Of a stretch of DNA of 64,000 bases, positions 867 through 61,720 are shown piece by piece. Origin of the DNA: an uncultured Anaerolineae bacterium (lineage in GTDB: Bacteria > Chloroflexota > Anaerolineae > JAFGEY01); NCBI GenBank assembly GCA_964560475.1, contig CAZLMZ010000001.1:538-64537 (forward strand), given 5' to 3'. Every line of letters starts with the position of its first letter. Position 1 is the first letter of the stretch. The position numbers were made by a program, and so were the translations under genes. Below the pieces are notes generated by a model. It was not told where the DNA came from, did no database searches, and was given only the letters and a program-made list of their open reading frames with translations.

Positions 867-1094
867 GTCGTTGTCGGGGCGTCCCAGCCTCCGCAACACC
901 GATAAGCTATGAGATACAGAGCGCCGCGCGCCGAGTAGGCGGCGGCGCTTTGATGGAGGGCAACTGGGACAGCGTACTGCAGCGGGCCTACGCGGGAAGG
1001 GTGTGCGCCCCTTGAGGTCGTGGCGTGCCCGAGGAGCAGGGCAAGCCAGTTGCGTAGCTGCTCAACGTTTCTTCGTCCTGAAGGGGCTCGATCC

Positions 1095-1976: not shown

Positions 1977-2283
1977 AGGATCTCTTGTCCGATGCCGAGG
2001 ATCAGCCCAAGCGGGAAGGGCCGAACGCGGGAGAGATCGACGAGCTACCGGGGCCGGCACAGGACTTGTGGCGTGACGATCTCTTTAGGGAGAAGCAGAG
2101 CGATTTGACGAACGGTGGTGCGGTGTACACGGCGGAGATCGTTGCCGTGCCTGGCGATGGAGTGGTGCCGGCGGTATTCCGCTACTAGCGCCGCGTGCCA
2201 GGGCAGTGCAGGGCCTGCCGGACGGCAGTACACATCTACGGGGTAGGAGTCGGAGCGGCAAGCCTCGCCGAGAGGAAAGGACA

Positions 2284-3240
2284 ATGTTTAGCGAGATACT
2301 CGTACCATTGGACGGCTCATCCCTGGCAGAGTGCGTGCTGCCTCACGTGGTTGCGGTGGCTACATCGTTCGATGCTGTTGCTGTGCTACTTCGCGTCTTG
2401 GGGCAAGAGCACGCAGAGGGCAGCGGCAGTCCTGCTGACCCGGTTGGGTGGCACCTCGCCGAGGCCGAGGCGCAGTCGTATCTGCAGGAGGTGGCGGATG
2501 GCCTGGCAGGCAGTGAAGTGAGCGCAGAGACGGTCATCCTCCAGGGGGCACCCGCTGAGCGGGTGCTGGAGCTGGCCAGGGAACGGGGATTCGGCCTGAT
2601 CGTGCTCAGCAGCCACGGGCAGAGCGGTCTCAGCGGCTGGAACGTGAGCAGCGTCGTACAAAAGATCATCCTCCGGGCTCGCCAGTCCGTGATGATCGTG
2701 CGTGCCTATCAGCCGGGCATAGAGCGGGGTGGCGTGGCGCGATACCGGCGCATCCTGGTGCCCCTCGACGGATCACAGCGTGCAGAGTGTGCGCTGCCAG
2801 TAGCCGCTCTCCTGGCTGAAGCGAACCGGGGCACGATCCTGCTGACGCACGTGGTCCACGAGCCTGAAATGCCTCGTCAGACCAAGCCGACGGAAGAAGA
2901 CCTCGATCTTGCAGAGCGCCTGGTGGAACGGAACACGGTAGAGGCTAAGGCATACCTTGATCGGCTGCGAAGGCGGCTGTCGGCCGACGCACAAGCCAGG
3001 TTACTCGTCGGCGGCGACGTGGCGACCACGCTTCAGGACGCTGTGGAGAGTGAGGAGGCTGATCTCGTCGTCCTGTCTGCACATGGATACTCTGGGGCGC
3101 CCCGACGCACCTACGGTAGCATCACGGCGGGTTTTATCGCATATGGTACTACGCCGCTACTCATCGTTCAGGACATCGAGGAGGATGAGTCGCGACCATC
3201 ACAGGCGGAACTATCAGTCAGAGAGCATAAAGGACACTAG
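2284..3240 (+). CDS. tandem-domain universal stress protein (UspA family)
   Basis: Two USP repeats (ILVPLDGS...LIVLSSHG and RILVPLDGS...LVVLSAHGYSG). RBS GAGGAAAGGA. The stop lies 4 nt before the start of the downstream glucan synthase. Confidence 0.8.
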   Translation: MFSEILVPLDGSSLAECVLPHVVAVATSFDAVAVLLRVLGQEHAEGSGSPADPVGWHLAEAEAQSYLQEVADGLAGSEVSAETVILQGAPAERVLELARERGFGLIVLSSHGQSGLSGWNVSSVVQKIILRARQSVMIVRAYQPGIERGGVARYRRILVPLDGSQRAECALPVAALLAEANRGTILLTHVVHEPEMPRQTKPTEEDLDLAERLVERNTVEAKAYLDRLRRRLSADAQARLLVGGDVATTLQDAVESEEADLVVLSAHGYSGAPRRTYGSITAGFIAYGTTPLLIVQDIEEDESRPSQAELSVREHKGH

Positions 3241-3243
3241 GGT

Positions 3244-6200
3244 ATGCCCGGTAAGGAGCAAGGCTCGGAAACTGCAACTCGCATCCAGAAACAGGAGCCG
3301 CGGACATCATCCGAGGGGATCGAGGCAGCGCAGGCACTAGCTCGGGAGCAACGGGCCGCGCTGGGTGCGGCGCGGGAGCGGTCCGTCCTGAGCTACCTGG
3401 ATGTACAGGATGAGGTGCTGACGCAAGCGTACCGGTACTTTGTGGAGCGATCAGAGACCGACATCTCGATCTCGTACGCCGGTGAGTGGATGCTGGACAA
3501 CTTTTACGTCGTACAGCAGACGCTGCGGCAGGTCCAGAAGGATATGCCCGACCGGTACTATCGTGAACTCCCGGTACTCGTCGACACGGATGCTGCGGGC
3601 CACCCACGCGCCTATGCACTTGCGCGCGAGATTGGGCGTTCTTCCCCGAATGGCATCGACATGGACAGGCTGCGAGCTTTTGTGCACGCTTACCAGTCGG
3701 TGAGGTCGCTCACGATGGGGGAGCTGTGGGCACTGCCAACGATGCTGCGTATCGTCGAGCTGGAGTACGTGACCTCGGCACTGCTCAAGATCGCTGATCT
3801 TGGGCCTATAGATGACGAGGATGCACTTTACGCTCTCACACCATTGGCTCAGGACGCGTCGAACGAGCAAGTGGTGGCAAACGGGATCCGAAGCCTGCAC
3901 GTGCTGCTCAACCAGGACTGGGAGAGCTGGTTCGAGGAGCTCAGCCAAGTCGAGCAGACCCTTCGTGAAGATCCAGTCGGCATCTACCCTCATATGGACT
4001 TTGAGACACGCGACCTGTATCGCAAGCGTGTAGAGACGCTGGCCAAGGGGACCGGCAGGGAGGAGGTGGAGATTGCAGAGGCGGCGGTCGAGCTAGCGAT
4101 AGAGAATCGCTCGCTAGCGGTCGAGGGGACCGAACCGGTGGCAACCGTAGAGCGTACGGCGCACGTAGGTTATGTGCTGGTAGGTAGTGGGCGCGATGGT
4201 CTGGAGGAGCGGCTGGACTATCGTCCGCCGTGGAAAGTGCGCATGCGGCGCTGGCTCGCCGCGCAGGCTACAGCCTTCTATTTCGGTGCCATCTCGGTCT
4301 CGACGCTGGGCGTGCTTACGCTGCTACTGCTGTACGGCCTCTGGGAAGGCGGCGCTCTATGGGTGTTGGTACTCGTTGGAGTGGTCAGCCTGATCCCGGC
4401 TTCTGCCGTAACCGTCGATGTGATCAACTGGTTGCTCACGCGCTTTGTCCCACCGCGGATGCTGCCCAAGATGGACTTCTCAGAAGGAGTGCCTGAGGAA
4501 TACACGACGATGGTCGTGATCCCCGCGCTGCTGAGCAGTGAGTCGGACATCCAGGCTCTGTTACAGCAGATCGAGCTACACTACCTGAGCAACGACGACC
4601 CAAACCTGCACTTTGCCTTGCTTACTGATTTCGCCGATGCCCCCGCGCAGGACATGCCGGAGGATGAGGCTCTGCTCGACAGGGCCAGCGCTGGCATCCG
4701 GCAGCTCAACCGGGCTCACGCGCGCGAGGGCGCAGACCCGTTCCACCTGTATCACCGCAGGCGGAAATGGAACGCGGCCGAGGAGACGTGGATGGGCTGG
4801 GAGCGCAAGCGTGGCAAGCTGTCCGAGTTCAACCAACTCCTGCTTGGGGAAGACGACACCTCCTATATGCTCAAGCTCGGAGACCAGCAAGCGCTATCGC
4901 GGGTGCGCTATGTGATCACACTCGATGCCGACACCTCACTGCCGCGGGACAGCGCACGGCGTCTCGCCGGCACGATGGCTCACCCGCTGAACAGGGCCAC
5001 CTTTGACTCTGAATCGGGGCGGGTAGTCTCTGGTTACACTGTGCTCCAGCCGCGGACAGAGATCAAGCCGACGAGCGCCAACCAGTCGCTCTTTGCCCGA
5101 GTGTATTCCGGCGACGTGAACCTGGACCTGTATTCGCGCGCGGTGTCTGACGTGTACCAGGACGTCTTTGGGGAAGGCATCTATGTAGGAAAGGGCATCT
5201 ATGACGTCGCGGCGTTCCAGAAGAGCCTGGATGGGCGTGTGCCAGAGAACGCTCTGTTGAGCCACGACCTCTTCGAAGGCGTGCACGGTCGCGCGGCGCT
5301 GGTGACCGATATCATTCTCTACGAGGACTATCCGCCCCACTATCTCGCCTATGCTCACCGCATGCACCGCTGGGTCCGGGGTGATTGGCAGCTCCTGCCA
5401 TGGCTGCTGCCGGGAGTACCGCACGAGACAAAGGGGAGCATTCGTAACGTGTTGTCCGTGCTCGACCGCTGGAAGCTGATCGATAACCTGCGGCGCAGCC
5501 TGACGCTCCCGTCGGTGCTGGCGCTGCTCATATGTGGCTGGCTGATCTTCCCTGGGGCCCCGTGGCTCTGGACAGTGATAGGGGCTGCCGTCGTCGGAGT
5601 GCCCCTGGTCACGTTGGGCATCTCGGCCGTGGTCGAGGGGGTCACAACTGGAGGCGGGATAAGGGAGAACATACGAGGGCTGCGTGATGACGCACTGCGT
5701 TGGCTGCTCGCGCTCGCGTTCATGCCATACCAAGTACTGATCACGATCGATGCCATCGGGAGCACGTTCGTCCGGCTGTTCGTCACGCATCGGCACCTGC
5801 TACAGTGGACCACAGCAGCTCACACGGTCAGCCTGTTCGGGCGAAAGATGCAGGTGGGTGTCATCTGGCTGCGGATGGGGGGAGCACCGCTAACGGCAGT
5901 GGCAGCAGGGATCCTGGTGGGCTTTGTGGCGCCCAGGTCGCTGGGCCCCGCGATCCCCTTACTCGTGGCCTGGGTGCTGTCGCCACAGATCGCACACTGG
6001 ATCAGCAGGCCGATCGAGCAGGTCAAGGAACATCTTCCAGCCGGGGCCTACGTCCGGCTGCGGCACCTCGCTCGCCGGACGTGGCTCTATTTCGAGCGCT
6101 TTGTGGGACCTGAAGACCACTGGCTGCCGCCAGACCACTATCAGGAGGAACCGCTCGGCGTGGTCGCTCATCGCACCTCGCCAACCAACATCGGCCTGTT

Positions 6201-9200
6201 GCTGTTGTCGACAGTAAACGCCTACGATCTGGGCTACATTGGACGAGTGGAGCTGACGATACGACTGCGCGATACATTGGACACGCTTACGGAGCTGGAA
6301 ACATACCGTGGGCATCTCATGAACTGGTACGATACGCGTACTCTCGAACCGCTCAGACCACGATATGTATCGACCGTAGACAGCGGCAATCTAGCTGGAT
6401 GCCTGCTGACCCTAGCACAGGCCTGTGAAAGCGTACCGTCTGCTCCGCTTCTGCGCTGGGAGGCATGGGAGGGCTTTCTCGACGCATGTGCGCTCCTGAT
6501 GGAGGCAGTCGGTCGCGTAGAAAGTGGTGCGTTGCGGGCAGCAACCGCTTCAATGGAAGAGACGCTGAGTGGATTCGAGCGACGGCTACTGGACAAGCGT
6601 GACGATCCTGCAGCGTGGCCCCGTTTGCTGCGCGAGTTTGCGGGGACGGGCTGGGAAACGTTCAATGCGCACATTATGGAGTACATTGAGGCACACGGCA
6701 ATGAGTTGAGCTCATCGACATTGCGCGAGATGCGCGTCTGGACGGAGCGAATGCAGTATCACCTCACCTGGTTGCAGCGGGAGGTCGACCAGTTGCTGCC
6801 GTGGTGGAACGTGCTTCAGGAACCTCCTGCCTTCCTCACTGGCGCGCAGGGCGAGGAGGTCGGCCCAGCATGGCAGGCCTTGCTGGCCATTCTGACCAGG
6901 ATCCCGAGCCTGGACGGCGTGCCGGAGCTCTGTCGTGCGGCACGGCTGCGGCTCGGTGAGCTGCAGACGATACTGAGAGAGATTGCCGAACCGGCCGATA
7001 GTGCGGAAGGGGTCGAGGAGGCGCTCCGCTGGTGCCAGCGCTTGCGGGATCAGCTCGATCGCGCCCAGGTGGATGCTGCTGGCCTGTCGGTCGCATTCGA
7101 GGAGATCGCCAGGCACGCGGACGACCTTTTCCGTGGGATGGAGTTCGGGTTCCTGCTGGATCCGCAGCGAGAGGTGTTCCGGATCGGATATAACGTGATG
7201 TCCGAGACGCTGGACAACAGCTACTACGACCTGCTTGCCTCGGAGGCCCGCATTGCCAGCTTGCTGGCTATCTGCAAGGGAGACGTACCTCAGCGACACT
7301 GGCTGCATATGGCGCGCCCGCTGGCCGAGATCGAAGGGATGAGGGCGCTCTTGTCGTGGAGTGGCACGATGTTCGAGTACCTCATGCCGACGCTCCTTGT
7401 CGAGAGCTATCCGGGAACATTGCTGGAGCAGAGCTGTCGTGTGGCCGTTGATAGGCAGATCGCCTACGCTCGCCGTGAGGGCGTACCGTGGGGAGTTTCA
7501 GAGTCGTCGTACTATCAGTTCGACGCCAACCGTGGCTACCAGTACAAGGCGTTCGGCGTGCCCGGATTGGGGCTCAAGCGGGGCCTGGCGGACGATCTCG
7601 TGGTCGCGTCCTATGCCTCCATACTGGCTCTTCCCATCCGGCCCAGGGCTGTGATGGAGAACCTAGATCGTCTCGAGGAGCTGCAGGCCAAGGGCCAGTA
7701 CGGCCTGTACGAGTCGATCGACTATACGGCGTCACGCTTGCCACTAGGGCAGCGCCACGCACTCGTGCGCACCTACATGGCGCACCACCAGGCGATGATT
7801 ATGCTCTCGCTGGGAAATGCGCTGTTGGCGGATGTCATGCAGCGGCGATTCCACTCGGACCAACGTGTGAGAAGCGTCGAGCTGCTGTTGCACGAGCGAG
7901 TACCGCAGGGCGCACCGTTGGAGGAACTGGGGGAGGACGAGGTCAGCGCCGTGCGGAGAGCAGAGCCAGAGGTGACGATCACGCCGTGGGAAGCATCTGC
8001 GGATGCGCCTTTGCCGATGCTACGTGTGTTGTCGAACGGCAGCTACACGGTAGTTGCTACTGCTGCAGGTGGTGGCTGGAGCGAGTATACGCCCTCGAAC
8101 GATGAGGGTGCCGGATCACAGGAAAAGGTCGCCCTGACCCGATGGCGGGCAGACACGACGTGCGATAGTTGGGGTACCTGGGTCTACCTACGAGACCTCG
8201 AGACTGGCCGGCTGTGGTCTCCTACCAGGCAGCCGATGCGATCTGGGGAGGGCGAGGGGGACGTGTCCTTTGCGCCGCACCAGGTCACATATGGGCGCCG
8301 CCTGGACGACTGGACCGTGCGAGCCGAGGTCACCGTGCCTCCAGACGACAACGTAGAGGTCCGCCGGCTGACGATCGTGAACCACGCTGACCAGGTACGG
8401 AGGCTGCGCGTGACCAGCTACGGCGAGGTCGTGCTGAACAGCCAAGAGACGGATCGACAGCATCCTGCATTCAACAAGCTCTTTATCGAGAGCGAGTTCG
8501 TTGAGGAGGAGCAGATACTGCTGTACCGGCGTCGGCCTCGAGCAGAGGGGGAGACACCTCTGTACCTCGGTCACGCTGTTGCCGTGCGCGGCGCAGAGGT
8601 GAGTGCTGTCGAGTATGAGGGGGACCGCGCCGAGTTCCTGGGACGCGGGCAGACGATTGCTGCGCCACAGTTGCTGTCCTCCAAGCGTGTGCTGACGGGA
8701 CACACGGGTGCCACGCTGGACCCGATCCTGTCTCTGGATCAGGAGATCGCTTTGGACCCGCGCAGTACAGCTCACGTCGCAGTAACGATCGCTGCAGGGA
8801 CATCGAGGGATGCCGTCATGCAAGTGATGACCCGGTACCGGCAGTGGGATGCGATCGACCGGGCCTTTACTGAGGCCAAGGGCCAGAGCGCCTATGCGCT
8901 CAGCGAGCTAGAGCTGACCGGTGAGGATCTGCAGCGGATCGATCGCCTTCTGGCAGCACTAGTTTACCCGTACCGCGGCCTGAGACCGGAAGCCGGCGTG
9001 ATCGCGCAGAACCAGAGAGGGCAGGCCACGCTGTGGGCACAGGGCATCTCGGGAGACTATCCGATCCTCCTGGTGTGCGTGCACGAGGAAGATGAGATGG
9101 AGCTGGTAAGTGACGTGCTCAAGGCCCACACGTATTGGCGCGAGCGCCGGATACAGGTCGATCTGGTTCTGCTGAATGAGAGAGAGACGGGATATGGGCA

Positions 9201-11883
9201 GGAGCTGAACGCTCAACTGCGCCGCTTGATCGAGCGAACAGGTGCCGATGGTCTGTTGAACCAGCGCGGCGGCATCTTTGTGCTACGTGCGGACCAGCTC
9301 GGCGAAGCGGACAGGATCCTTCTGCTGTCTGCTGCACGCGTCGTGCTCGATGGTGGAGCGGGCTCGCTCGCCGATCAGTTGGCAGCGCTCGAGGACCGGC
9401 CGGTGCGCCTTCCGGCGTTGCAGCCCACCTATCCAGGCGTCAGGGAGTCGGAGCCGACGCCAGCGCTGGAGGCGAGCGAGGATTTGCACTTCTGCAACGG
9501 GTACGGCGGGTTCACTCCTGACGGCAAAGAGTACGTCATCGATCTGGTACCCGGCCAGTGGACTCCCGCGCCCTGGGTCAACGTGATTGCGAACCCCGAG
9601 TTCGGGTTCCTGGTCTCCGAAGCAGGACTTGGAGGCACCTGGGCAGGCAACAGCCAGGAAAACCGGCTCACGCCCTGGCGCAATGATCCGGTGAGCGATG
9701 AGCCGGCTGAGGCGATCTACCTGCGCGATGAGCAGACAGGCGCGGTGTGGTCGCCGACACCGCTGCCGGTGCGCGTGCGGGCGCCATACGAGATCCGGCA
9801 CGGAGCGGGGTACTCGACGTTCACGCACAACAGCCACGGGCTTCGGCAGCGGGTCCGCGTCTTTGCGGCGCGCGATGACCCGATCAAGGTCATCCAGTTA
9901 AGGCTGGAGAACACGTGGAACCAAGGCCGGCGGGTGACGGCGACCTATTATGCCGAATGGGTCCTGGGCACCTCGCGCGATGGGGCCCAGCAGTTCGTGA
10001 TCCCGGAATTCGATGGCGAGTCGGAAGTGCTTCTGGCTCGTAACCCGTACAACAGCGAATTCTCCGAGCGCGTGGCGTTCGCCGCTGCCGGGCGACGGCT
10101 GCACGGCATGACCGGCGACCGTGGTGAGTTCCTGGGAAAGCTGGGCAGTATGCAGAGTCCGGCTGCGCTGGACCGCATCGGGCTAGAGGGCCGGGTGGAG
10201 GCAGGACTCGATCCGTGTGCCGCGTTGCAGGTTCACCTCGATCTCGGACCCGGCGAAAGCACAGAGATCCATTTCCTCCTGGGGCAAGGGACAAACCGGG
10301 AAGACGCGCTGGCACTCGCGCAGAAATATCGTACGCCAGATGTGGTGGACATGGCGTGGGACGAGATGCGGGAGCAGTGGGACGAGCTACTCGGCACAGT
10401 GCAGGTGGACACGCCGGATGAGGCGATGAACTTGGTCTTGAACCGCTGGCTGCTGTACCAGGCGCTGGCATGCCGTGTGTGGGGCCGCTCGGCGCTCTAT
10501 CAGTCGAGCGGGGCCTACGGCTTCCGCGACCAGCTTCAGGACGTGATGGCGCTCGTCCACGCCGCTCCCGAACTCGTCCGGGACCAGATCCTGCGCTCTG
10601 CGGAACACCAGTTCGAGGCCGGCGATGTCCTGCACTGGTGGCACCCACCCTCCGGGCGGGGCGTACGGACTCACATCTCTGACGACCTGTTGTGGCTGCC
10701 GTTGGTCACGGCTCACTATGTGCGGTGCACGGGCGATCGCGCGATCCTGGATGAGGAGCTTCCCTTCCTCCAGGCTGAGCCGCTCAAAGCCGACGAAGAG
10801 GACCGCTATGGCCAGTACAGCGCGACCGAGACGCACTATCCGCTGTACGAGCACTGTCTACGCGCGTTGGACAAGGGCACGACGTCCGGCGAGCACGGTC
10901 TGCCACTGATGGGTAGCGGTGACTGGAACGATGGCATGAACCGCGTCGGGATCGAGGGTGAGGGCGAAAGCGTGTGGTTGGGGTGGTTCCTGTACATGAA
11001 CCTGACTCAGTTTGCCGATCTATGCGCCGACCGGGGTGACGATGAACGGGCAGCAGCGTACCGAGAGCAGGCGGAGGAGCTGCGGCAGACCCTGGAGAAT
11101 GAGGCGTGGGACGGTGCGTGGTATCGACGGGCATACTATGATGATGGTAGCCCACTGGGCTCGGCACGCAACCGTGAGTGCAGGATCGACTCGATCGCCC
11201 AGTCCTGGTCGGTCCTGTCGGGGGCTGCAAGCGCCGATCGCGCAGGTCGTGCGATGCAGGCTGTCGAGGAGTGGCTCGTCAAGAGGGATGACCGACTGAT
11301 TTTGCTCTTTGCGCCACCTTTTGACAAGACGCTCAACGACCCGGGATATATCAAGGGCTATCCACCCGGGATCCGTGAGAACGGCGGGCAGTACACGCAC
11401 GCTGCATTGTGGGCGGTATGGGCGTATGCGCAGATGGGCAAGGGCACACGTGCCCAGTCACTCTTTTCGCTGCTCAACCCGGTGCTGCATAGCGATACAC
11501 AAGAGAAAGCGGATCACTACAAGGTGGAGCCCTACGTGGTCGTGGCAGACGTGTACAGCGTGCCTCCCCACGTAGGGCGCGGCGGCTGGAGCTGGTATAC
11601 GGGCTCGGGAGCGTGGATGTATCGGCTCGGTATAGAGGCGATCCTGGGAATCCAGCGCGAAGGTGAGGCGCTGCGGATCGACCCTCGCATCCCCGCCGAT
11701 TGGGATGGGTATGCGGTCCGCTACCGCTTTGGAGAGGCCTCCTACGAGATCCAGGTCGAGAACCCGGAACACGTACAGCAGGGAGTGTCAGAGATCGTGC
11801 TGGATGGACAAGCATCATTCGACGGCCTCGTACCTCTGGAGGACGATGGAGGGACGCACGACGTGCGGGTGGTGATGGGATGA
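3244..11883 (+). CDS. ndvB: cyclic beta-1,2-glucan synthase (Cgs/NdvB/ChvB type): N-terminal membrane-embedded GT84-like glycosyltransferase plus C-terminal GH94 phosphorylase-like domain
   Basis: A single 2879-aa ORF. It carries the processive-GT motifs DAD (VITLDADTSLPRD) and QxxRW (HRWVRGDWQ) flanked by multiple TM segments. The C-terminal third has GH94 signatures (GSGDWNDGMNRVG...ESVWLGWFLY). The size matches the ~2830-2870 aa Cgs proteins. Confidence 0.85.
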   Translation: MPGKEQGSETATRIQKQEPRTSSEGIEAAQALAREQRAALGAARERSVLSYLDVQDEVLTQAYRYFVERSETDISISYAGEWMLDNFYVVQQTLRQVQKDMPDRYYRELPVLVDTDAAGHPRAYALAREIGRSSPNGIDMDRLRAFVHAYQSVRSLTMGELWALPTMLRIVELEYVTSALLKIADLGPIDDEDALYALTPLAQDASNEQVVANGIRSLHVLLNQDWESWFEELSQVEQTLREDPVGIYPHMDFETRDLYRKRVETLAKGTGREEVEIAEAAVELAIENRSLAVEGTEPVATVERTAHVGYVLVGSGRDGLEERLDYRPPWKVRMRRWLAAQATAFYFGAISVSTLGVLTLLLLYGLWEGGALWVLVLVGVVSLIPASAVTVDVINWLLTRFVPPRMLPKMDFSEGVPEEYTTMVVIPALLSSESDIQALLQQIELHYLSNDDPNLHFALLTDFADAPAQDMPEDEALLDRASAGIRQLNRAHAREGADPFHLYHRRRKWNAAEETWMGWERKRGKLSEFNQLLLGEDDTSYMLKLGDQQALSRVRYVITLDADTSLPRDSARRLAGTMAHPLNRATFDSESGRVVSGYTVLQPRTEIKPTSANQSLFARVYSGDVNLDLYSRAVSDVYQDVFGEGIYVGKGIYDVAAFQKSLDGRVPENALLSHDLFEGVHGRAALVTDIILYEDYPPHYLAYAHRMHRWVRGDWQLLPWLLPGVPHETKGSIRNVLSVLDRWKLIDNLRRSLTLPSVLALLICGWLIFPGAPWLWTVIGAAVVGVPLVTLGISAVVEGVTTGGGIRENIRGLRDDALRWLLALAFMPYQVLITIDAIGSTFVRLFVTHRHLLQWTTAAHTVSLFGRKMQVGVIWLRMGGAPLTAVAAGILVGFVAPRSLGPAIPLLVAWVLSPQIAHWISRPIEQVKEHLPAGAYVRLRHLARRTWLYFERFVGPEDHWLPPDHYQEEPLGVVAHRTSPTNIGLLLLSTVNAYDLGYIGRVELTIRLRDTLDTLTELETYRGHLMNWYDTRTLEPLRPRYVSTVDSGNLAGCLLTLAQACESVPSAPLLRWEAWEGFLDACALLMEAVGRVESGALRAATASMEETLSGFERRLLDKRDDPAAWPRLLREFAGTGWETFNAHIMEYIEAHGNELSSSTLREMRVWTERMQYHLTWLQREVDQLLPWWNVLQEPPAFLTGAQGEEVGPAWQALLAILTRIPSLDGVPELCRAARLRLGELQTILREIAEPADSAEGVEEALRWCQRLRDQLDRAQVDAAGLSVAFEEIARHADDLFRGMEFGFLLDPQREVFRIGYNVMSETLDNSYYDLLASEARIASLLAICKGDVPQRHWLHMARPLAEIEGMRALLSWSGTMFEYLMPTLLVESYPGTLLEQSCRVAVDRQIAYARREGVPWGVSESSYYQFDANRGYQYKAFGVPGLGLKRGLADDLVVASYASILALPIRPRAVMENLDRLEELQAKGQYGLYESIDYTASRLPLGQRHALVRTYMAHHQAMIMLSLGNALLADVMQRRFHSDQRVRSVELLLHERVPQGAPLEELGEDEVSAVRRAEPEVTITPWEASADAPLPMLRVLSNGSYTVVATAAGGGWSEYTPSNDEGAGSQEKVALTRWRADTTCDSWGTWVYLRDLETGRLWSPTRQPMRSGEGEGDVSFAPHQVTYGRRLDDWTVRAEVTVPPDDNVEVRRLTIVNHADQVRRLRVTSYGEVVLNSQETDRQHPAFNKLFIESEFVEEEQILLYRRRPRAEGETPLYLGHAVAVRGAEVSAVEYEGDRAEFLGRGQTIAAPQLLSSKRVLTGHTGATLDPILSLDQEIALDPRSTAHVAVTIAAGTSRDAVMQVMTRYRQWDAIDRAFTEAKGQSAYALSELELTGEDLQRIDRLLAALVYPYRGLRPEAGVIAQNQRGQATLWAQGISGDYPILLVCVHEEDEMELVSDVLKAHTYWRERRIQVDLVLLNERETGYGQELNAQLRRLIERTGADGLLNQRGGIFVLRADQLGEADRILLLSAARVVLDGGAGSLADQLAALEDRPVRLPALQPTYPGVRESEPTPALEASEDLHFCNGYGGFTPDGKEYVIDLVPGQWTPAPWVNVIANPEFGFLVSEAGLGGTWAGNSQENRLTPWRNDPVSDEPAEAIYLRDEQTGAVWSPTPLPVRVRAPYEIRHGAGYSTFTHNSHGLRQRVRVFAARDDPIKVIQLRLENTWNQGRRVTATYYAEWVLGTSRDGAQQFVIPEFDGESEVLLARNPYNSEFSERVAFAAAGRRLHGMTGDRGEFLGKLGSMQSPAALDRIGLEGRVEAGLDPCAALQVHLDLGPGESTEIHFLLGQGTNREDALALAQKYRTPDVVDMAWDEMREQWDELLGTVQVDTPDEAMNLVLNRWLLYQALACRVWGRSALYQSSGAYGFRDQLQDVMALVHAAPELVRDQILRSAEHQFEAGDVLHWWHPPSGRGVRTHISDDLLWLPLVTAHYVRCTGDRAILDEELPFLQAEPLKADEEDRYGQYSATETHYPLYEHCLRALDKGTTSGEHGLPLMGSGDWNDGMNRVGIEGEGESVWLGWFLYMNLTQFADLCADRGDDERAAAYREQAEELRQTLENEAWDGAWYRRAYYDDGSPLGSARNRECRIDSIAQSWSVLSGAASADRAGRAMQAVEEWLVKRDDRLILLFAPPFDKTLNDPGYIKGYPPGIRENGGQYTHAALWAVWAYAQMGKGTRAQSLFSLLNPVLHSDTQEKADHYKVEPYVVVADVYSVPPHVGRGGWSWYTGSGAWMYRLGIEAILGIQREGEALRIDPRIPADWDGYAVRYRFGEASYEIQVENPEHVQQGVSEIVLDGQASFDGLVPLEDDGGTHDVRVVMG

Positions 11884-11923
11884 TCGGCCCGTACACAGAA
11901 GTGAGATAGAAGGAGGAACGGCC

Positions 11924-12523
11924 TTGGACGAAAGCGTCGATCTGTTCAGCGGCATCCTGACGGAGCGGCGGGGAGTGAACGTCGAGACACTGCGCTCGGT
12001 GCTCGATCTTGCGGTGGAGCTGGCCAGGGAGGGCCGCGAGGGGCGTCGGATCGGGACAATGTTCGTCGTCGCGGATGAGGAAGAGGTACTACAACGTTCG
12101 CGCTGCCTGATTCTCGACCCGCTGTGGCACCATCCGGTCGAGCGGCGACGGCTCACGGACCACAACCTGCGCGAAACCTTGAAAGAACTGGCGCAGTTGG
12201 ACGGGGCGTTCGTCATCTCGAACGAGGGGGTGGCGCTCTCGGCAACGCGCTATATCAATGCCTCTTCAGAGGGGATCGACCTGCCGCTCGGGCTGGGTGG
12301 CCGGCACATGGCGGCAGCGTCGATCACGTACGAGACGAACGCCGTTGCTGTCGTCGTCTCTGCGAGTTCGATCGTCCGTGTATTTGACGATGGCCAGCTC
12401 ATCGCCGAGATCATCCCGGAGATCTGGTTCCTGCGGCGCTATGGCGTGGCAGACAGGACCGTTCGTCCCGAGGGAGATGGGGAACAGATTGCCGTGTTCC
12501 ATCGCGGCGAGGGAGAACGCTGA
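11924..12523 (+). CDS. standalone DAC (diadenylate cyclase, DisA_N/CdaA-like) domain protein with an atypical RHM in place of RHR
   Basis: DAC landmarks align: GTMFVVAD (like GALIVV), DGAFVISNEG (the DGA motif) and LGGRHMAAASITYETNAVAVVVS (like LGTRHRAA...ALxIVVSEE). It has no TM segments and no HhH domain. It lies 40 nt downstream of ndvB on the same strand. Confidence 0.55.
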   Translation: MDESVDLFSGILTERRGVNVETLRSVLDLAVELAREGREGRRIGTMFVVADEEEVLQRSRCLILDPLWHHPVERRRLTDHNLRETLKELAQLDGAFVISNEGVALSATRYINASSEGIDLPLGLGGRHMAAASITYETNAVAVVVSASSIVRVFDDGQLIAEIIPEIWFLRRYGVADRTVRPEGDGEQIAVFHRGEGER

Positions 12524-12590
12524 GACTTGGCGCCGGCTGCCGTTCTCAGAGCAGGGTACATCGCTCTTTCCAGCAGGCGGGCCGACCTAG

Positions 12591-12626
12591 CCAACCCGAT
12601 CCTAACTCTGTCCACCAAAGTCAACC
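12591..12626 (+). repeat. 36-nt conserved intergenic motif, copy A (upstream of osmC)
   Basis: CCAACCCGATCCTAACTCTGTCCACCAAAGTCAACC. Copy B at 23414-23449 is 31/36 identical. Confidence 0.6.
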
Positions 12627-12743
12627 ACAGCTCAAACGCAGCCCATCAGTTTGGATCGATGAGCGATGCTATGATAGAGGAAAGTGGCAGTGGCGTCATA
12701 GAGGTGGTCTCGGTGGCGCGCTGCTCGTTCGAGAAGGATGGAC

Positions 12744-13187
12744 ATGATGGCAGAGATCAAGCGCAAAGGCCAGGCGATCTGGTCCGGTGACAAGAGGGGA
12801 AGCGGCACGGTCAGCACCGAGAGCGAGGTGTTGGACAGCACGCGATATACCTTCAAGACGCGGTTCGGTGACCAGCCGGGAACGAACCCAGAAGAGCTGA
12901 TTGCAGCGGCCCATGCGGGGTGCTTTAGCATGGCGCTCGCCGCCACCGCAAGCGACAAGGGCTATACGCCGCGCTATATCAAGACTGTGGCTACCTGTAC
13001 ACTCGTGCCCCTGGATGGAGGCGGGTACAAGATCGCCAAGATGGACCTCGATGTGAGCGCGAAGGTGCTCGATATCGACGAGGAAACCTTCCAGGAGCTC
13101 GTGGAAGAAGCCGACCAGGGGTGTCCTGTATCCAACCTGCTACGTCCTGGCTTGGAGATCACGCTAAAGGCCTCTCTGGCCGAGTAG
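12744..13187 (+). CDS. osmC: OsmC/Ohr family peroxiredoxin (osmotically inducible protein C-like)
   Basis: OsmC fold signatures (AAAHAGCFSMALAA ... DQGCPVSNLL, two conserved Cys). An AAGGA RBS sits 5 nt before the third in-frame ATG. Confidence 0.85.
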   Translation: MMAEIKRKGQAIWSGDKRGSGTVSTESEVLDSTRYTFKTRFGDQPGTNPEELIAAAHAGCFSMALAATASDKGYTPRYIKTVATCTLVPLDGGGYKIAKMDLDVSAKVLDIDEETFQELVEEADQGCPVSNLLRPGLEITLKASLAE

Positions 13188-13226: not shown

Positions 13227-14486
13227 ATGGAAACGTACGAATATGTCATCATCGGCGGCGGCATGGCCGGAGGAAAGGCCTGCGAAGGAATCCGCAAAGT
13301 GGATGAGCGCGGGCACGTTGTCCTGATCACGGACGAGGCCCACCGGCCTTACGAGCGTCCACCTCTCTCCAAGGAGTACATGGTGGGGGAAAAGGGCCTG
13401 AGCCGCGTCTACCTGCGGCCCGAGAGCTATTATCCGGAGCACGACGTAGAGGTGTGGACCGGCGTGCGGGCAACTGAGCTGAGCCCAACCTCGCACGTGG
13501 TCACGTTGGACAGTGGGGAGCAGATCCGCTACAACAAGCTGCTGCTAGCGACGGGCGGACGTGCGAAGCGACTGCCTCTGCCAGGGAACGGCCTGCCCGG
13601 TGTGTTCACCCTACGGACGATCGAGGACTCGGATGCGATCAAGGAAGCAGCAGAGACGGCCGAGCGCGCCCTGGTCCTGGGCGGGAGCTTTATTGGTTCG
13701 GAGGTCGCTTCCTCACTGACCCAACTGGGCGTCGAGGTAACGATGGTCTTTCCTGACAGGCGATTGCTCGAGCGGGTCGTACCTGAGGAGTTGAGTGCGT
13801 TTCTGCACCGTATGTACAAGGACCGGGGAGTGCGGATCATTCCTGAGACCACAGCAGAGAAGCTGAACGGGAGTGCCAAGGTCGCAGACGCGCAGCTCGA
13901 CAATGGGGAAACGCTCTCCGTCGATATGGTCGTCATGGGCGTCGGTATCAACCTGAACACTCAACTGGCACGAGATGCAGGACTGGAGCTCACGAAGGAG
14001 GGTGCGGTAGCTGTAGACCAATACCTGCGGACGAGCGACCACGACATCTATGCGGCCGGAGATATCGCGGCCTGGCCCAGCATGACCTTTCGCGAGGCTA
14101 CACTCTCCGGCGGGCCCAAGCGTCTGCGCGTGGAGCACTGGGACGTGGCGCGCAGCCAGGGGTTGCGTGCAGGCGGCAACATGGCAGGCGACCAGGCGCC
14201 CTATACAACGCTGCCCTACTTTTTCTCGGACCTGTTCGAGTTCAGCTTTGAGGCGTGGGGCGATCTGAGCGCGTGGGACACGACCGTCTTGCGCGGCTGC
14301 CTGGAGCGTGGAAGCTTTGCCTACTTTTACTTTCGTGAGACGCGACTGGTGGGCGTGCTTGCCGTCGGACGGCCGGACGAGGAGCGTAAACCCATGCAGG
14401 AACTGGTGCGTCTGGGCCCGCAGCACGAGAAGGTGGCGGAAGCGCTCAGGACAGAAGAAACCAGCTTGAGCAAGCTCATTACATAG
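13227..14486 (+). CDS. FAD/NAD(P)-dependent pyridine nucleotide-disulfide oxidoreductase (ferredoxin/rubredoxin reductase-like)
   Basis: An N-terminal FAD fold (YVIIGGGMAGG), a second Rossmann motif (LVLGGSFIGSEVASSL) and an AAGD motif. RBS GAGGAG. Confidence 0.8.
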   Translation: METYEYVIIGGGMAGGKACEGIRKVDERGHVVLITDEAHRPYERPPLSKEYMVGEKGLSRVYLRPESYYPEHDVEVWTGVRATELSPTSHVVTLDSGEQIRYNKLLLATGGRAKRLPLPGNGLPGVFTLRTIEDSDAIKEAAETAERALVLGGSFIGSEVASSLTQLGVEVTMVFPDRRLLERVVPEELSAFLHRMYKDRGVRIIPETTAEKLNGSAKVADAQLDNGETLSVDMVVMGVGINLNTQLARDAGLELTKEGAVAVDQYLRTSDHDIYAAGDIAAWPSMTFREATLSGGPKRLRVEHWDVARSQGLRAGGNMAGDQAPYTTLPYFFSDLFEFSFEAWGDLSAWDTTVLRGCLERGSFAYFYFRETRLVGVLAVGRPDEERKPMQELVRLGPQHEKVAEALRTEETSLSKLIT

Positions 14487-14873: not shown

Positions 14874-15593
14874 ATGAGCGGAATACTGCGCACGTTGGTC
14901 GTGGACGACGAGGAACGGATCCGCTTCTTCCTGCAGGAGACCCTGCAGCGGTCAGGACACGTTGTGACGACAGCCTCGAATGGAGAGGAGGCGCTGGAGC
15001 GGCTGCAGGAGACCTCGTTCGATCTCGTGATGCTTGACTTGATGCTGGGTGGGCGGATCGACGGTCAGCGTGTCCTCGAAGCGATCCGCTGGCGTTGGCC
15101 CGGTACGATCGTGATCATCCTGACTGCACATGGGTCGCTCGAGTCTGCCGTATCGGCGATCCAGGAAGGCGTGGATGGATACTTGCTCAAGCCTGTCCGG
15201 CCCGACGATATTCGCCGAGCTGTGGGAGAGGCGGTCGAGCGACGCCAGATGTTGGTCGAAGCAGAGCAGGATGGGGACTCGGGTCACATACTAAAGCGAG
15301 GCCCATTTGCGGTCGATCTTCAGAGCCGCCAGGTGACCTATGGTGAGAAGACAGTGGATCTCACTCCGAGCGAGTTCAAGCTTTTGGTCCACATGATGCA
15401 GAACGCGCGCGAGGCGATCTCACCGCCCGAGTTGGTACAAGCGGTACGCCAGTACAAGCCTGAATATCTGCAGGAAGCACGCCAGATCATCAAGTGGTAT
15501 GTTCATCGGCTGCGCCGTAAGGTGGAGCCAGATCCTTCGAACCCGAGGCATATCCTGAATGTCCGTGGCGTCGGCTATATGTTCGAGCCATAA
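14874..15593 (+). CDS. OmpR-family two-component response regulator (REC plus winged-helix), orphan
   Basis: A receiver domain (VVDDE...DLVMLDLMLGG...K) and a C-terminal trans_reg_C domain (LTPSEFKLL...VRGVGY). No histidine kinase is adjacent. Confidence 0.85.
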   Translation: MSGILRTLVVDDEERIRFFLQETLQRSGHVVTTASNGEEALERLQETSFDLVMLDLMLGGRIDGQRVLEAIRWRWPGTIVIILTAHGSLESAVSAIQEGVDGYLLKPVRPDDIRRAVGEAVERRQMLVEAEQDGDSGHILKRGPFAVDLQSRQVTYGEKTVDLTPSEFKLLVHMMQNAREAISPPELVQAVRQYKPEYLQEARQIIKWYVHRLRRKVEPDPSNPRHILNVRGVGYMFEP

Positions 15594-15666: not shown

Positions 15667-15918
15667 CATCTGCTAGCCTGCTCCCGCACTCGGTATGTTG
15701 CTTCTGTCTGACGACATCACATACGAATGTCTCCTCCACGTGCAGTGCCCAACGAAAATCCAACCTAGTCAACCGGATCCGAAGGCAGCGCAAACCAACT
15801 CCATCGGTTGCGCGGATGCCAGTCTGCTACAATGGGGGTTGCACACGCGGTTTGGCGTGTTGTGTCCGGCACGCGTGGTCGTTGCCGTCTTGATACAGAC
15901 AGGAAAACCCACGGCTAC

Positions 15919-16872
15919 ATGGAGTATAAAGACTATTATGCGATCCTCGGCGTGAGCCGAGACGCAGACCCAAAGGAGATCCGGAGCGCGTATCGAAAGC
16001 TTGCGCGCCAGTACCATCCCGACGTCAATCCCGGCGACAGCGAGGCAGAGGAACGGTTCAAGGAGATCAATGAAGCCTACGAGGTCTTGTCGGACCCGGA
16101 AAAACGGGAAAAGTACGACCGACTCGGCTCGGAATGGCGTCGTTACCAGCAGGCCGGAGGTCAGCCCGGTGGCTTTGACTGGGATCAATGGCGATCTCAG
16201 CAAGCAGGCCCAGGCGGGCAGCGGGTGCACGTACGTTACGGTACCCCGGAGGATCTCGAGGACCTGTTTGGAGGCGCGGCGCCCTTCTCTGACTTTTTTG
16301 CGCAGATGTTCGGTGGCAGGGGAGGTGCGCCAGCAGGTGGATTCCAGTATCAGGTACAACCAAGGCGTGGACGGGACGTCGAGCAGGAGGTGCAGATCGA
16401 TCTACTGGAGGCCTACAAGGGCACAACTCGTACCCTACAGATGGACGGGCGACGTCTGCGAGTCAAGATCCCCGCTGGAGCACATACGGGAACACGGGTC
16501 CGCATTCCGGGAGCGGGGGCATCGGGCAGTGCAGGTGGCGAGCAGGGCGACCTTTACTTGCACGTGATCGTGGCGCCTGATCCGCGGTTCGAGCGCGAGC
16601 ACGCGGATCTGCATACGGACGTGCGGGTGGATCTGTATACTGCCATCCTGGGCGGGAAGGTGCCAGTGCCTACCCTCGATGGCACGGTCCGACTGACGAT
16701 CCCGGAGGGCACGCAGAACGGCCAGGTTTTCCGTCTGAGAGGGAAGGGCATGCCACAGCTGCGGGATCCCGAACAGCACGGGGACCTGTATACTAGAGTG
16801 CAGGTCGAGTTGCCGACGGAACTGAGCGATCGGCAGCGTGAGCTGTTCGAGGAACTGCGGCGAGCGGTCTAG
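15919..16872 (+). CDS. cbpA: curved-DNA-binding DnaJ-class co-chaperone (J domain, no zinc finger; CbpA-like)
   Basis: A J domain (DYYAILGVSRDADPKEIRSAYRKLARQYHPDVN), a G/F-rich linker, and a C-terminal DnaJ_C domain without the CxxCxGxG repeats. Confidence 0.85.
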   Translation: MEYKDYYAILGVSRDADPKEIRSAYRKLARQYHPDVNPGDSEAEERFKEINEAYEVLSDPEKREKYDRLGSEWRRYQQAGGQPGGFDWDQWRSQQAGPGGQRVHVRYGTPEDLEDLFGGAAPFSDFFAQMFGGRGGAPAGGFQYQVQPRRGRDVEQEVQIDLLEAYKGTTRTLQMDGRRLRVKIPAGAHTGTRVRIPGAGASGSAGGEQGDLYLHVIVAPDPRFEREHADLHTDVRVDLYTAILGGKVPVPTLDGTVRLTIPEGTQNGQVFRLRGKGMPQLRDPEQHGDLYTRVQVELPTELSDRQRELFEELRRAV

Positions 16873-17225: not shown

Positions 17226-19658
17226 ATGGACAAGAGGCAGCTAGAGACATCCGAGTTATACCAGCGTTGTGACCCTGCGCTCTTTGACTTTGAGACGACG
17301 GCCGATCTCGAGGAGTTGGGGGAGGTCATCGGGCAGCCACGCGCTGTGGAAGCGCTGCACTTTGGGATGGGCATCGGAACGGATGGGTACAATATCTATG
17401 CGATGGGCCCAACGGGAACGCGCAAGCGCGAACTCGTACGGGAGCTGTTTCAGAGACGGGCCAAGTCAGAGCGCGTGCCTAATGACTGGTGCTACGTCAA
17501 CAACTTTGACCAGCCGGCCAAACCTCGCGCGATCGGCCTGCCGCCAGGCATGGGCACAGAGTTTCGCAACGACATGGAGCATGCAACCGAGGAGCTGAGC
17601 ACAGCGATGTCGGCTGCTTTCGAGAGCGAGGAATATCAGACGCGGCAGCAGTCGATCGCAGAAGAGTTTCAGGAGCGCCAGTCGGAGGCGCTCGAGGGAC
17701 TGCGAGAGCGCGTCGAAAAGGATGATCTGGCCCTGATTCGTACGCCAGGCGGCTTTGTGTTCGCCCCAGTCCACGACGGGAACGTGCTGTCTCCCGAAGA
17801 GATCCAGCAGTTGTCCGAGGAGAGACGGCGGGCATTGGAGCGGAAAGTCGAAGACTATGAGCAGGATCTGCAACGGATCTTCCGACAGGTCCCGACCTGG
17901 CAGCGCGAGCGACGAGAGCAGATCAACGAGCTGAACCGCGAGATGGCAGAGTTTGCGGTCGGCGGCATCATCGACGAGCTGAAGGAAAAGTACGCCGGGT
18001 TCCCGGACGTTCTCGACTACCTGCAAGCAGTGCAGAAGGATGTTATCGAGAACGCGCAGGCCTTTATGCCGTCAGAACAGCAACAACAGCAGATGCCGGG
18101 TTTCCTACAGATGCTGGCGGGAGGGGCGGGCGCACAGGATCAGCAGCCTATACTGAGACGTTACCGGGTGAACCTCGTGGTCGAGCACGGCGACGATCAG
18201 GGAGCGCCGGTGATCTACGAGGACAACCCGAGCTATCAGAACCTGATCGGGCGGGTGGAGCACCAGGCCCAAATGGGCGCGCTGATCACTGACTTTAACC
18301 TGATCAAGGGTGGAGCGCTGCACGAAGCAAATGGCGGATACCTGATTCTGGACGTGCAAAAGGTACTGACAGAGCCGTACGCCTGGGAAGGCCTGAAGCG
18401 GGCGCTGCAGTCGAAGGACCTGCGCATCGAGTCGTTGGGCCAGCGGCTGAGCCTGATCAGCACCGTGTCCCTGGAGCCGGAGCCGATCCCGCTGAACGTC
18501 AGGGTGGCCTTGGTTGGGGATGAGAGGCTGTATTACTTGCTGTGGCAGCTCGATCCCGACTTCCGCGAGCTGTTCAAGGTCGCTGCCGACTTTGCCGGGG
18601 AGATGGATCGCACCGATCAGAGCCAGCGCCAGTATGCGCAGTTGATCGCGGGCCTGGTGCGACAGCACGACCTTCGCCCCTTGGACCGTACCGGGGTCGC
18701 ACGCGTGATCGAGCAAAGCGCACGGATGGTGGGCGACACGGCCAAGTTGTCTACGCAGGTGCGCAGCGTGGCTGACCTGCTGCAGGAGGCCAGCTACTGG
18801 GCCGGTGAGGCGGATGCCGACGTCGTGTCGGCAGACCACGTACAAAAGGCAATCGATGCCCAGATCTTTCGCGCGGATCGGATCCGCGAGCGAATGCAGG
18901 AGCAGGTTTTGCGTGAGACCATCCTGATCTCGACAGAGGGGACCGAGGTGGGACAGGTGAACGGCCTGTCCGTCATTTCGCTCGGCAACTTTTGGTTCGG
19001 GCGACCGACCCGGATTACGGCGCAGACACGCCTGGGCAGTGGGCAGGTGGTCGACATCGAACGCGAAGTCGAGCTGGGCGGACCGCTTCACTCAAAGGGC
19101 GTGCTGATCCTCTCGGGCTTTATGGGGGCGCGATATGCAGAGGATACGCCGCTCTCGTTGTCGGCGAGCCTGGTGTTCGAGCAGTCCTACGGTGGCGTCG
19201 ATGGAGACAGCGCCTCGTCGGCAGAGCTGTACGCGCTGCTTTCTGCCATCTCGGAAGTGCCGATCAAGCAGTCCTACGCGGTCACAGGCTCTGTGAACCA
19301 GCATGGACGCGTGCAGGCGATCGGCGGCGTAAACGTCAAGATCGAGGGCTTTTTCGACGTGTGCAAGGCACGCGGGCTGACAGGAGAGCAAGGCGTCCTG
19401 ATCCCGTCGTCGAATGTGAAGCACCTCATGCTGCGGCAAGATGTGCGCGACGCAGTCGATGCCGGCGAGTTTCACATCTATGCGGTGGACACAATCGATC
19501 AGGGCATCGAGATCCTGACCGGTATGCCTGCTGGCGAGCCGGACGAGGAGGGGAGCTATCCTGAGGGCACGGTCAACTATCGGGTCAAGCAGCGCCTCGC
19601 AGAGCTGGCGGAAAAGCGCCGCAAGTACGGTGCGTCGGGCAAGGAAGGTGAAGCATGA
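17226..19658 (+). CDS. Lon-like protease, COG1067/LonC-type (AAA-like domain with degenerate P-loop plus S16 Ser-Lys protease domain)
   Basis: An 810-aa protein. The N-terminal AAA-like region has GPTGTRKR where a Walker A motif is expected. The C-terminal Lon proteolytic domain contains GDSASSAELYALLSAIS ... KIEGF. RBS ACGGAGGT. Confidence 0.75.
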   Translation: MDKRQLETSELYQRCDPALFDFETTADLEELGEVIGQPRAVEALHFGMGIGTDGYNIYAMGPTGTRKRELVRELFQRRAKSERVPNDWCYVNNFDQPAKPRAIGLPPGMGTEFRNDMEHATEELSTAMSAAFESEEYQTRQQSIAEEFQERQSEALEGLRERVEKDDLALIRTPGGFVFAPVHDGNVLSPEEIQQLSEERRRALERKVEDYEQDLQRIFRQVPTWQRERREQINELNREMAEFAVGGIIDELKEKYAGFPDVLDYLQAVQKDVIENAQAFMPSEQQQQQMPGFLQMLAGGAGAQDQQPILRRYRVNLVVEHGDDQGAPVIYEDNPSYQNLIGRVEHQAQMGALITDFNLIKGGALHEANGGYLILDVQKVLTEPYAWEGLKRALQSKDLRIESLGQRLSLISTVSLEPEPIPLNVRVALVGDERLYYLLWQLDPDFRELFKVAADFAGEMDRTDQSQRQYAQLIAGLVRQHDLRPLDRTGVARVIEQSARMVGDTAKLSTQVRSVADLLQEASYWAGEADADVVSADHVQKAIDAQIFRADRIRERMQEQVLRETILISTEGTEVGQVNGLSVISLGNFWFGRPTRITAQTRLGSGQVVDIEREVELGGPLHSKGVLILSGFMGARYAEDTPLSLSASLVFEQSYGGVDGDSASSAELYALLSAISEVPIKQSYAVTGSVNQHGRVQAIGGVNVKIEGFFDVCKARGLTGEQGVLIPSSNVKHLMLRQDVRDAVDAGEFHIYAVDTIDQGIEILTGMPAGEPDEEGSYPEGTVNYRVKQRLAELAEKRRKYGASGKEGEA

Positions 19659-20506
19659 GCAGCGAGGAGGGAGAAGTGCGGATCCGGCGTATTCTCGTCG
19701 CTCTGGATGCGTCCACGCATAGCCGCGCAGCACTGGCAGCGGCGGCGGACTTGGCTGGACGCTTTCATGCCGAGCTGCTCGGCATGTTCGTAGAGGACGT
19801 GAACCTGCTCCGACTGGCAGAGCTGCCGTTCGCACGCGAGGTTTTCATCTACTCGGCGCGGCGCCGCGAGCTCAGTACACGCGAGATGGAGCGGCAGCTA
19901 CACGCCCAGGCACGCCGCGCGCGCGAGCTGCTGCGCGCAGAGGCAGAGCGTGCAGAGCTGGAATGGTCGTTCGAGGTGGCACGGGGGCGGATCACCGCTG
20001 AACTGCTACGCGCTGCGTCCGAAGCAGACATGATCATCCTGGGACGGGCTGGTTGGTCGCTCACGCAGGCGCGACGGCTCGGATCGACTGCGCGCGGTGT
20101 GGCAGTGCAGGCGCCCTCCATGGCCCTTCTGCTCCAAGAGGGAGGCTGCTTGGGGCCGCCGGTGATGGTCGTGTACGATGGGTCGGAGATCGGGGCGCGT
20201 GCACTCGAAACGGCGCTCGGCTTGAGTGAGGACGCGGGCGACATACTGACCGTAATCTTGGCGGACGGCCACGAGGCGCTGCCACGCCTGCGGGAGGAAG
20301 TGAACCAGCATCTGCGGGGTGCGGAGCAGGAGGTCGAGCTGCGATACGTGCCTTTGAGCGCATCGAACGTGCAGCGGCTCGCTCACATGGTGCGGATGGA
20401 GGGCTGCGGCACGCTGGTGTTGCCAGCGCGGAGCCGGCTGCTCCACAAAGATATGCTTCTCGACCTGCTGGACGAAACGGAGATCCCTGTCTTGCTGGTG
20501 CGGTAA
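19655..20506 (+). CDS. tandem USP-domain protein
   Basis: RRILVALDASTHSRAAL... and VMVVYDGSEIGARAL... The ATG overlaps the Lon-like stop (ATGA). Confidence 0.7.
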   Translation: MSSEEGEVRIRRILVALDASTHSRAALAAAADLAGRFHAELLGMFVEDVNLLRLAELPFAREVFIYSARRRELSTREMERQLHAQARRARELLRAEAERAELEWSFEVARGRITAELLRAASEADMIILGRAGWSLTQARRLGSTARGVAVQAPSMALLLQEGGCLGPPVMVVYDGSEIGARALETALGLSEDAGDILTVILADGHEALPRLREEVNQHLRGAEQEVELRYVPLSASNVQRLAHMVRMEGCGTLVLPARSRLLHKDMLLDLLDETEIPVLLVR

Positions 20507-61525: not shown

Positions 61526-61601
61526 TGGCGCGCCCGGCGGGACTCGAACCCACAACCTTCGCTTTCGTAGAGCGGTGCTCTATCCATTGAGCCACGGGCG
61601 C
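61526..61601 (-). tRNA. tRNA-Arg (anticodon ACG), CCA encoded
   Basis: Cloverleaf folded by hand: 7-bp acceptor stem GCGCCCG/CGGGCGC, D-arm GCTC/GAGC, anticodon loop CU-ACG-AA, T-loop TTCGAGT, terminal CCA. Confidence 0.85.
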
Positions 61602-61615
61602 ACATTCGTTATCAG

Positions 61616-61705: not shown

Positions 61706-61720
61706 TTGGCTGTTCTGCAG

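Follow-up and report, generated by a model that had tools for sequence, protein, structure and literature searches.

We provide evidence that a small gene in a 64,000-nucleotide stretch of Anaerolineae DNA (the window) probably encodes an active DacZ-type diadenylate cyclase (DAC) without a sensor domain, a reading drawn from sequence comparison and from analogy with assayed enzymes. The protein reads RHM where CdaA and DisA read RHR, and our alignments indicate that this methionine is a normal residue of the DacZ subtype and not a lesion. RHR is often presented as a motif of all DACs, yet DacZ-branch enzymes normally have methionine or another non-basic residue in third place. RHM is unsuited as a flag for dead cyclases, and this correction is the main value of the analysis. 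The gene and its landmarks are as follows.

11911-11916, plus strand: AGGAGG, Shine-Dalgarno-like, 7 nt before the TTG (read from the sequence)
11924-12523, plus strand: DAC gene, predicted 199-aa single-domain DacZ-type protein, TTG start, TGA stop included (ORF list and translation)
12200-12208, plus strand: codons of the DGA catalytic motif, D93-G94-A95 (read from the sequence)
12296-12310, plus strand: codons of G125-G126-R127-H128-M129, the RHR position, here RHM (read from the sequence)
12353-12367, plus strand: codons of V144-V145-S146-A147-S148, the VVS-x-S strand in place of VSEE of CdaA (alignment to CdaA structures)
12416-12520, plus strand: family-specific C-terminal extension, residues 165-199, a helix P-E-I-W-F-L-R-R-Y followed by a low-confidence tail

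Domain and fold were computed here. The Pfam DAC profile PF02457 covers residues 34-158 (E=7.3e-18; 64.7 bits against a cut-off of 27) and is matched over positions 3-118 of its 119; the domain begins at about residue 20-34 and is followed by a 40-residue tail. The Pfam search found no second domain in the protein. There is no hydrophobic stretch of transmembrane length in the N-terminal 33 residues, which form a charged, soluble N-terminus, and neither a linker nor an HhH domain is present. An AlphaFold2 model computed from an alignment of 100 sequences (pLDDT 86.3, pTM 0.83) is confident over residues 5-174 and falls below a pLDDT of 50 at residues 175-199. In a Foldseek search of the PDB with this model, the top 50 matches were all DACs (probability 1.00, target-normalised TM 0.63-0.69), the best being Staphylococcus aureus DacA, CdaA, Mycobacterium tuberculosis DisA and DacM. 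The product is a soluble stand-alone DAC-domain protein with the mixed alpha/beta DAC fold. These results bear out the initial annotation, which had described a DAC (DisA_N) core with a DGA motif, lacking both the transmembrane helices of CdaA and the HhH/linker domains of DisA, and had proposed a PF02457 search and a structural comparison as checks. The NCBI entry for the protein's own cluster, from an Anaerolineae MAG, likewise reads "DisA nucleotide-binding domain protein".

Galperin reportedly sorted DACs into 22 families in 2023 ("All DACs in a row"). We computed the subtype affinity of the window protein from profile scores and alignments. Its best NCBIfam match is NF041371 (DacZ; E=2.6e-40), at 138.5 bits against a cut-off of 430; this whole-protein cut-off is missed by the 199-aa protein, which matches only profile positions 123-268 of 270, the C-terminal catalytic half, whereas a Haladaptatus DacZ scored for comparison reached 449.8. 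The profiles for CdaA (TIGR00159; 18 bits against 188.8), DisA (NF010009; 17.6 against 201) and CdaM (NF038327; 18.7 against 225) all remained below their cut-offs, and the single N-terminal transmembrane helix of CdaM is absent. Pairwise, the protein is 44% identical over 149 aa to the DacZ of Haloferax volcanii, with methionine aligned to methionine, and when the short family to which it belongs was compared with DacZ-like proteins by hhalign, the probability was 100 (48% identity over 151 columns, E=3e-54). The next-nearest relatives, as returned by exhaustive HMMER searching of representatives at 50% identity, measure 270-300 aa or more. Their C-terminal DAC domain shares 40-50% identity with the window protein at its residues ~18-165; many of them carry PK_C-like/DacZ_N domains, and the extra domains of DacZ relatives are PF19294, PF21754-6 or PF02887. 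By sequence, then, the window protein is a catalytic domain of the DacZ type and lacks the PK_C-like domain that DacZ has at its N-terminus.

The initial annotation had correctly read G-G-R-H-M where CdaA and DisA have G-T-R-H-R, and alignments to solved CdaA chains place Met129 opposite the second arginine of GTRHRAA. It had gone on to propose that loss of this arginine means altered or absent cyclase activity, for example in a c-di-AMP-binding or regulatory paralogue, and here the evidence points the other way. The H. volcanii diadenylate cyclase (P0464, 269 aa, retrieved with the Haladaptatus plasmid DacZ as query) has the motif GLGARHMAGGA, and RHM is found in 108 of 120 haloarchaeal DacZ clusters. 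According to one study (PMC6741144), H. volcanii has no other DAC and cannot do without this one, and the enzyme produces c-di-AMP in vitro when manganese is supplied. An active enzyme with the same RHM refutes the proposition that RHM means altered or dead, removes the ground for a receptor inferred from RHM, and shows that a literal RHR defines CdaA and DisA and not all DACs. The classic evidence for an essential RHR is a triple RHR-to-AAA mutant (PMC3328451), which carries no information on the third residue alone.

Within the short family itself, position 129 is methionine in 179 of 201 aligned members (valine in 17, leucine in 4, isoleucine in 1), which makes Met129 characteristic of the family rather than a mutation of this one protein. 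Among DacZ-like representatives, the corresponding position is A, I, V, L, M, W or S, and arginine is very rare there; Methanocaldococcus infernus has RHV, Methanotorris RHR, and the Haladaptatus megaplasmid DacZ that passes NF041371 (449.8 against 430) has RHH. The residue before the arginine, position 126, is serine in 180 of the 201 members, glycine in 10, threonine in 6 and alanine in 5. Glycine at this site has a precedent in active enzymes, namely the minimal PanS DACs, which are active with the catalytic motifs DGF and GGR and contact the nucleotide through D, G, G and R (bioRxiv 10.64898/2026.08.10.743927).

It could still be argued that the protein is a pseudo-enzyme or receptor, which has kept the DAC fold, lost catalysis and binds c-di-AMP or ATP beside a canonical CdaA or DisA encoded elsewhere. 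The second arginine is missing, the threonine before the first arginine is replaced by glycine, and Glu147 of the family is alanine in this lineage; moreover, one Actinomycetota MAG (GS_HAYS_MAG_00014) holds two paralogues, one fused to a DsbA-like domain and one stand-alone (L043 and L072), and not every copy need be a housekeeping cyclase. Conserved residues do not speak decisively here, as a receptor could keep them too. Against this stand the RHM of the active H. volcanii DacZ and the GGR of active PanS, and we consider a pseudo-enzyme quite improbable. Within the 64-kb window, neither tblastn nor a family-alignment HMM run on six-frame ORFs found a second DAC gene.

An active DacZ-type cyclase is further supported by the conservation of the family, computed here over 201 members. 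Invariant residues are E36-G37-R38-E39-G40, G44, S59, L64-D65-P66, K87-E88, D93-G94, F96, S106, G123, G125, R127-H128, A130, A132, S146, R152, G157 and E162; P165, E166 and W168 vary hardly or not at all, and 194 of the 201 have A95 and 196 have Y110. Position 147 is glutamate in 186 of the 201 and alanine in the window protein, and position 148 is serine or threonine. At well-kept sites the window protein departs from the consensus by S126G, E147A, C12L and C108T, and these departures count against its being an active cyclase; in archaeal DacZ-like proteins the E147 site may hold E, K or Q. DacZ reads LSES at the VVS-x-S strand of the window protein. In CdaA, the glutamate of SEE is a metal ligand. 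As this residue is serine throughout the DacZ clade, metal handling would differ from that of CdaA. The C-terminal tail has the consensus G-L-H-L-x-G-P-Y-S-x-R...T-V-V-S-K across the family, and could be a partner-binding or oligomerisation motif. In the window protein the tail diverges from this consensus (residues 176-199, 12449-12520). Comparison with a 91%-identical orthologue (L081) gave dS 0.61, dN 0.048 and dN/dS 0.079, as computed here, so that the gene is under purifying selection, and its GC content is in line with that of its flanks.

The short family is cellular and has many members. More than 7,494 clusters came back when 5.8 billion proteins were searched, and the best 120 of these are almost all DAC-only proteins of 190-246 aa that are 59-99% (mostly 60-74%) identical to the window protein and come from Anaerolineae, Caldilineaceae, Kiritimatiellae, Lentisphaerae, Calditrichota and Thermodesulfobacteriota; in summary, the family spans 55-70% identity and more than 10 phyla. 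A scan of one genome per species found it in at least 452 species, adding Desulfobacterota (including the cultured Desulfacinum infernum), Planctomycetota, Verrucomicrobiota, Dadabacteria, Elusimicrobia, Nitrospirota, Rubrobacteraceae, Rhodothermales, KSB1 and Bdellovibrionales. Among 2.9 million viral contigs there was a single match. On plasmids, tblastn matched only haloarchaeal dacZ on Haladaptatus megaplasmids. These dacZ genes lie on replicons of 540-600 kb (Haladaptatus salinisoli NZ_CP085330.1, L085 1129-1935; and NZ_CP085338.1). The H. salinisoli plasmid copy reads RHH instead of the RHM of 108 of 120 haloarchaeal clusters, and on this ground it may be a second, plasmid-borne copy.

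A census of gut genomes lists 19 Verrucomicrobiota species with a "DacZ"-class protein as their only DAC class (PMC12901056). The short family is present in Kiritimatiellae, Lentisphaerae and Verrucomicrobia, and the census species would fit a short family acting as sole cyclase, "DacZ" being the class label of the census and membership of these proteins in the family a candidate assignment. Our literature searches found no assayed member of the short bacterial family, and nothing relevant on a stand-alone DAC. The family, which is strongly conserved, comprises sensor-less DacZ-like cyclases in bacterial phyla whose c-di-AMP biology is almost unstudied. The window gene is an ordinary member of this large, database-annotated family, and nothing unusual is left at the locus.

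In some members of the family the DAC is joined to a cytoplasmic DsbA-like Thioredoxin_4 domain whose CPYC motif is intact.

L019 3894-5060, L041 8978-10537 and L043 9248-10561: N-terminal DsbA-like fusion, Rubrobacteraceae and other Actinomycetota
L047 9416-10537, L063 9353-10576 and L068 2539-3747: N-terminal DsbA-like fusion, Rubrobacteraceae and other Actinomycetota
P0122 (cluster of 385): N-terminal DsbA-like fusion, Rubrobacteraceae and other Actinomycetota
L057 9983-11179 (Rhodothermales), and P0121: C-terminal DsbA-like fusion

Since the fusions occur in both domain orders and in different phyla, they appear to be independent events, and they suggest a functional tie to thiol-redox chemistry. 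Other architectures were also seen. P0130 (324 aa) joins an N-terminal zf-UBP zinc finger to the DAC domain, and P0262 (279 aa), a DacZ-type protein related at greater distance, begins with a LysR-type HTH and would be a DNA-binding diadenylate cyclase. Semi-conserved cysteines are found in the family at positions 12, 61 and 108, of which the window protein has C61 alone. A cysteine disulfide switch as a general mechanism was set aside, because the semi-conserved cysteines are missing from the DsbA-fused forms and only C61 is present here. A literature search on DsbA with diadenylate cyclase returned nothing relevant.

From these sequences one may construct a wider proposal, namely that the ~200-aa DacZ-like proteins form a distinct bacterial cyclase class, perhaps the main or only source of c-di-AMP in many Gram-negative and uncultured phyla (e.g., Chloroflexota, Desulfobacterota, PVC and Rubrobacteria) and perhaps gated by thiol-redox state. 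The redox element draws on the two-way DsbA-like CPYC fusions, the semi-conserved cysteines and the OsmC and disulfide-reductase neighbours. We regard this proposal, taken as a whole, as speculative and rather doubtful; if true, a redox-gated class would tie oxidative stress to c-di-AMP signalling.

In the window, the DAC gene stands within a run of stress-related genes (1020-24363), all on the plus strand.

1020-1976, plus strand: BrkB
2206-3240, plus strand: tandem-Usp
3244-11883, plus strand: NdvB/Cgs-like cyclic beta-1,2-glucan synthase, 2879 aa (Pfam Glyco_trans_2_3 [GT2], Glycoamylase, GH94 supersandwich, GH94 catalytic)
12738-13187, plus strand: OsmC-family gene (Pfam OsmC, E=1.2e-19)
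13227-14486, plus strand: FAD-disulfide oxidoreductase
14874-15593, plus strand: OmpR-type regulator
15808-16872, plus strand: DnaJ
17226-19658, plus strand: LonC-like protease
19655-20506, plus strand: Usp
23533-24363, plus strand: BON+PRC-barrel

The ndvB stop lies 40 nt from the TTG of the DAC gene, and this junction contains no terminator-like site and no plus-strand promoter-like site. Four metagenomic contigs (L081-L084), which encode the 91%-identical protein P0002, have the order Usp, ndvB, DAC, ..., osmC, FAD-disulfide oxidoreductase and OmpR-type regulator, and keep the ~40-nt junction. Cotranscription with ndvB is therefore probable, as the initial annotation had supposed from the spacing. 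In the same contigs a 289-aa HHH_8/HHH_5 gene lies between the DAC gene and osmC; after the DAC stop, the window has 68 bp (12525-12592) in place of a 1,013-bp segment (L081 6544-7556, with the gene at 6670-7539). The HHH_8 + HHH_5 protein corresponds to a PolX-like N-terminal part. A stand-alone DAC with an HhH protein beside it recalls a DisA split in two.

The functional coherence that the initial annotation saw in the ndvB/osmC neighbourhood holds for this lineage and its close relatives but does not extend to the family. Among 80 loci of other species, BLAST found homologues of NdvB, OsmC, BrkB, DnaJ and LonC within 10 kb in none, and homologues of Usp and of the oxidoreductase in one locus each; clustering of the ORFs at these loci yielded no neighbour common to more than about a quarter of them. 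The osmotic neighbourhood thus belongs to the lineage, and an osmotic operon as a property of the family was rejected. Other lineages have settings of their own. In Rubrobacteraceae (L027, L029, L031, L037, L038, L042, L051, L072 and others), one to three genes for cNMP-binding sensor histidine kinases lie directly upstream, often overlapping the DAC start, with a REC-thioredoxin-reductase fusion further upstream, and a conserved gene of ~192 aa and an MFS transporter lie downstream. A c-di-AMP riboswitch was sought in the window and not found, Rfam returning only three tRNAs. These tRNA genes stand in a row on the minus strand (61529-61807; RF00005, 55-65 bits).

As to catalysis, product, oligomeric mechanism and regulation, we infer the following scheme for the window protein. 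By analogy with characterised DACs, two protomers, each with bound ATP and a divalent metal ion, which is Mn2+ in DacZ, would pair head-to-head. Asp93 and Gly94, together with Gly125, Arg127 and His128, would place the ribose and phosphates for formation of two 3'-5' bonds, giving c-di-AMP. Because the protein has no sensor domain, its output would probably depend on expression, with the conserved C-terminal tail or partner proteins possibly contributing. Expression in this lineage would probably be from the ndvB transcript, within the stress-gene cluster, and a thiol-redox input is hinted at by the DsbA-like fusions of relatives. Minimal DACs that lack a sensor domain may be active constitutively, and PanS is.

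The product may be questioned separately, in that the protein could be an active cyclase that makes something else, such as mixed 3'3'-cUA, as some minimal DACs do. PanS makes cUA or c-di-AMP by means of a remodelled lid loop, and the Y110-G123 loop of the window protein ("INASSEGIDLPL") is longer than that of CdaA and strongly conserved across the family. The loop of H. volcanii DacZ ("LEPSAEGVDIPK") is, however, equal in length and similar in sequence, and the product of this enzyme in vitro is reported to be c-di-AMP (PMC6741144). We therefore judge another product unlikely, and retain c-di-AMP as the probable product of a DacZ-type cyclase.

Comparison with known systems places the window protein closest to DacZ. 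With CdaA/DacA (TIGR00159) it shares the DAC fold (TM about 0.65-0.69), the DGA motif, the tyrosine after the beta-hairpin, G-x-R-H and the serine of VS; identity is only ~21-23%, the three N-terminal transmembrane helices belong to CdaA alone, and RHM and S-x-S stand against RHR and S-E-E. DisA (NF010009) has the same fold, the M. tuberculosis enzyme being among the top structural matches, but its linker and HhH DNA-binding domain are missing here.

PanS resembles the window protein in being DAC-only, in its G-G-R motif and in its activity without a full RHR (bioRxiv 10.64898/2026.08.10.743927), and these likenesses, above all the small DAC-only build, raise the question of whether the protein is an anti-phage decoy cyclase of the Panoptoo/PanS kind. 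By its description, however, PanS is a protein of ~150 aa that lies in defence islands and is partnered by an S2TM-beta effector, and this sets the window protein apart, which is ~200 aa long, is widely conserved and has a DacZ-type core. Its neighbours are ndvB and osmC, with no adjacent S2TM-beta effector. The surroundings of the gene in the 80 loci are housekeeping or stress-related and variable, with neither a two-gene operon nor a conserved gene for a small membrane partner among them. PADLOC gave no match, with a library from 2023 that predates PanS. Such a decoy is extremely improbable. Membership in a defence system more generally was also rejected, given the absence of a PADLOC match with the 2023 library and the lone match in viral contigs.

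DacZ (the H. volcanii HVO_1660 type; NF041371), or CdaZ of Methanocaldococcus, differs from the window protein in several respects. It carries an N-terminal PK_C-like/DacZ_N domain of ~120 aa, in place of which the window protein has a short N-terminal segment of its own; the archaeal protein ends at a point corresponding to about residue 168, while the bacterial one continues in a C-terminal extension of ~35 aa; and haloarchaeal dacZ is in an operon with mscS2, whereas the window gene is not adjacent to mscS. The catalytic core, however, is held in common, including the motifs L-A-[IV]-E-[IL]-x-x-x-G-x-x-G...G-[TA]-x-F, K-E-[LF]-[AS]-x-L-D-G-A-F-V-I-S, P-x-G-L-G-x-R-H-M-A and V-[VL]-S-[EA]-S.
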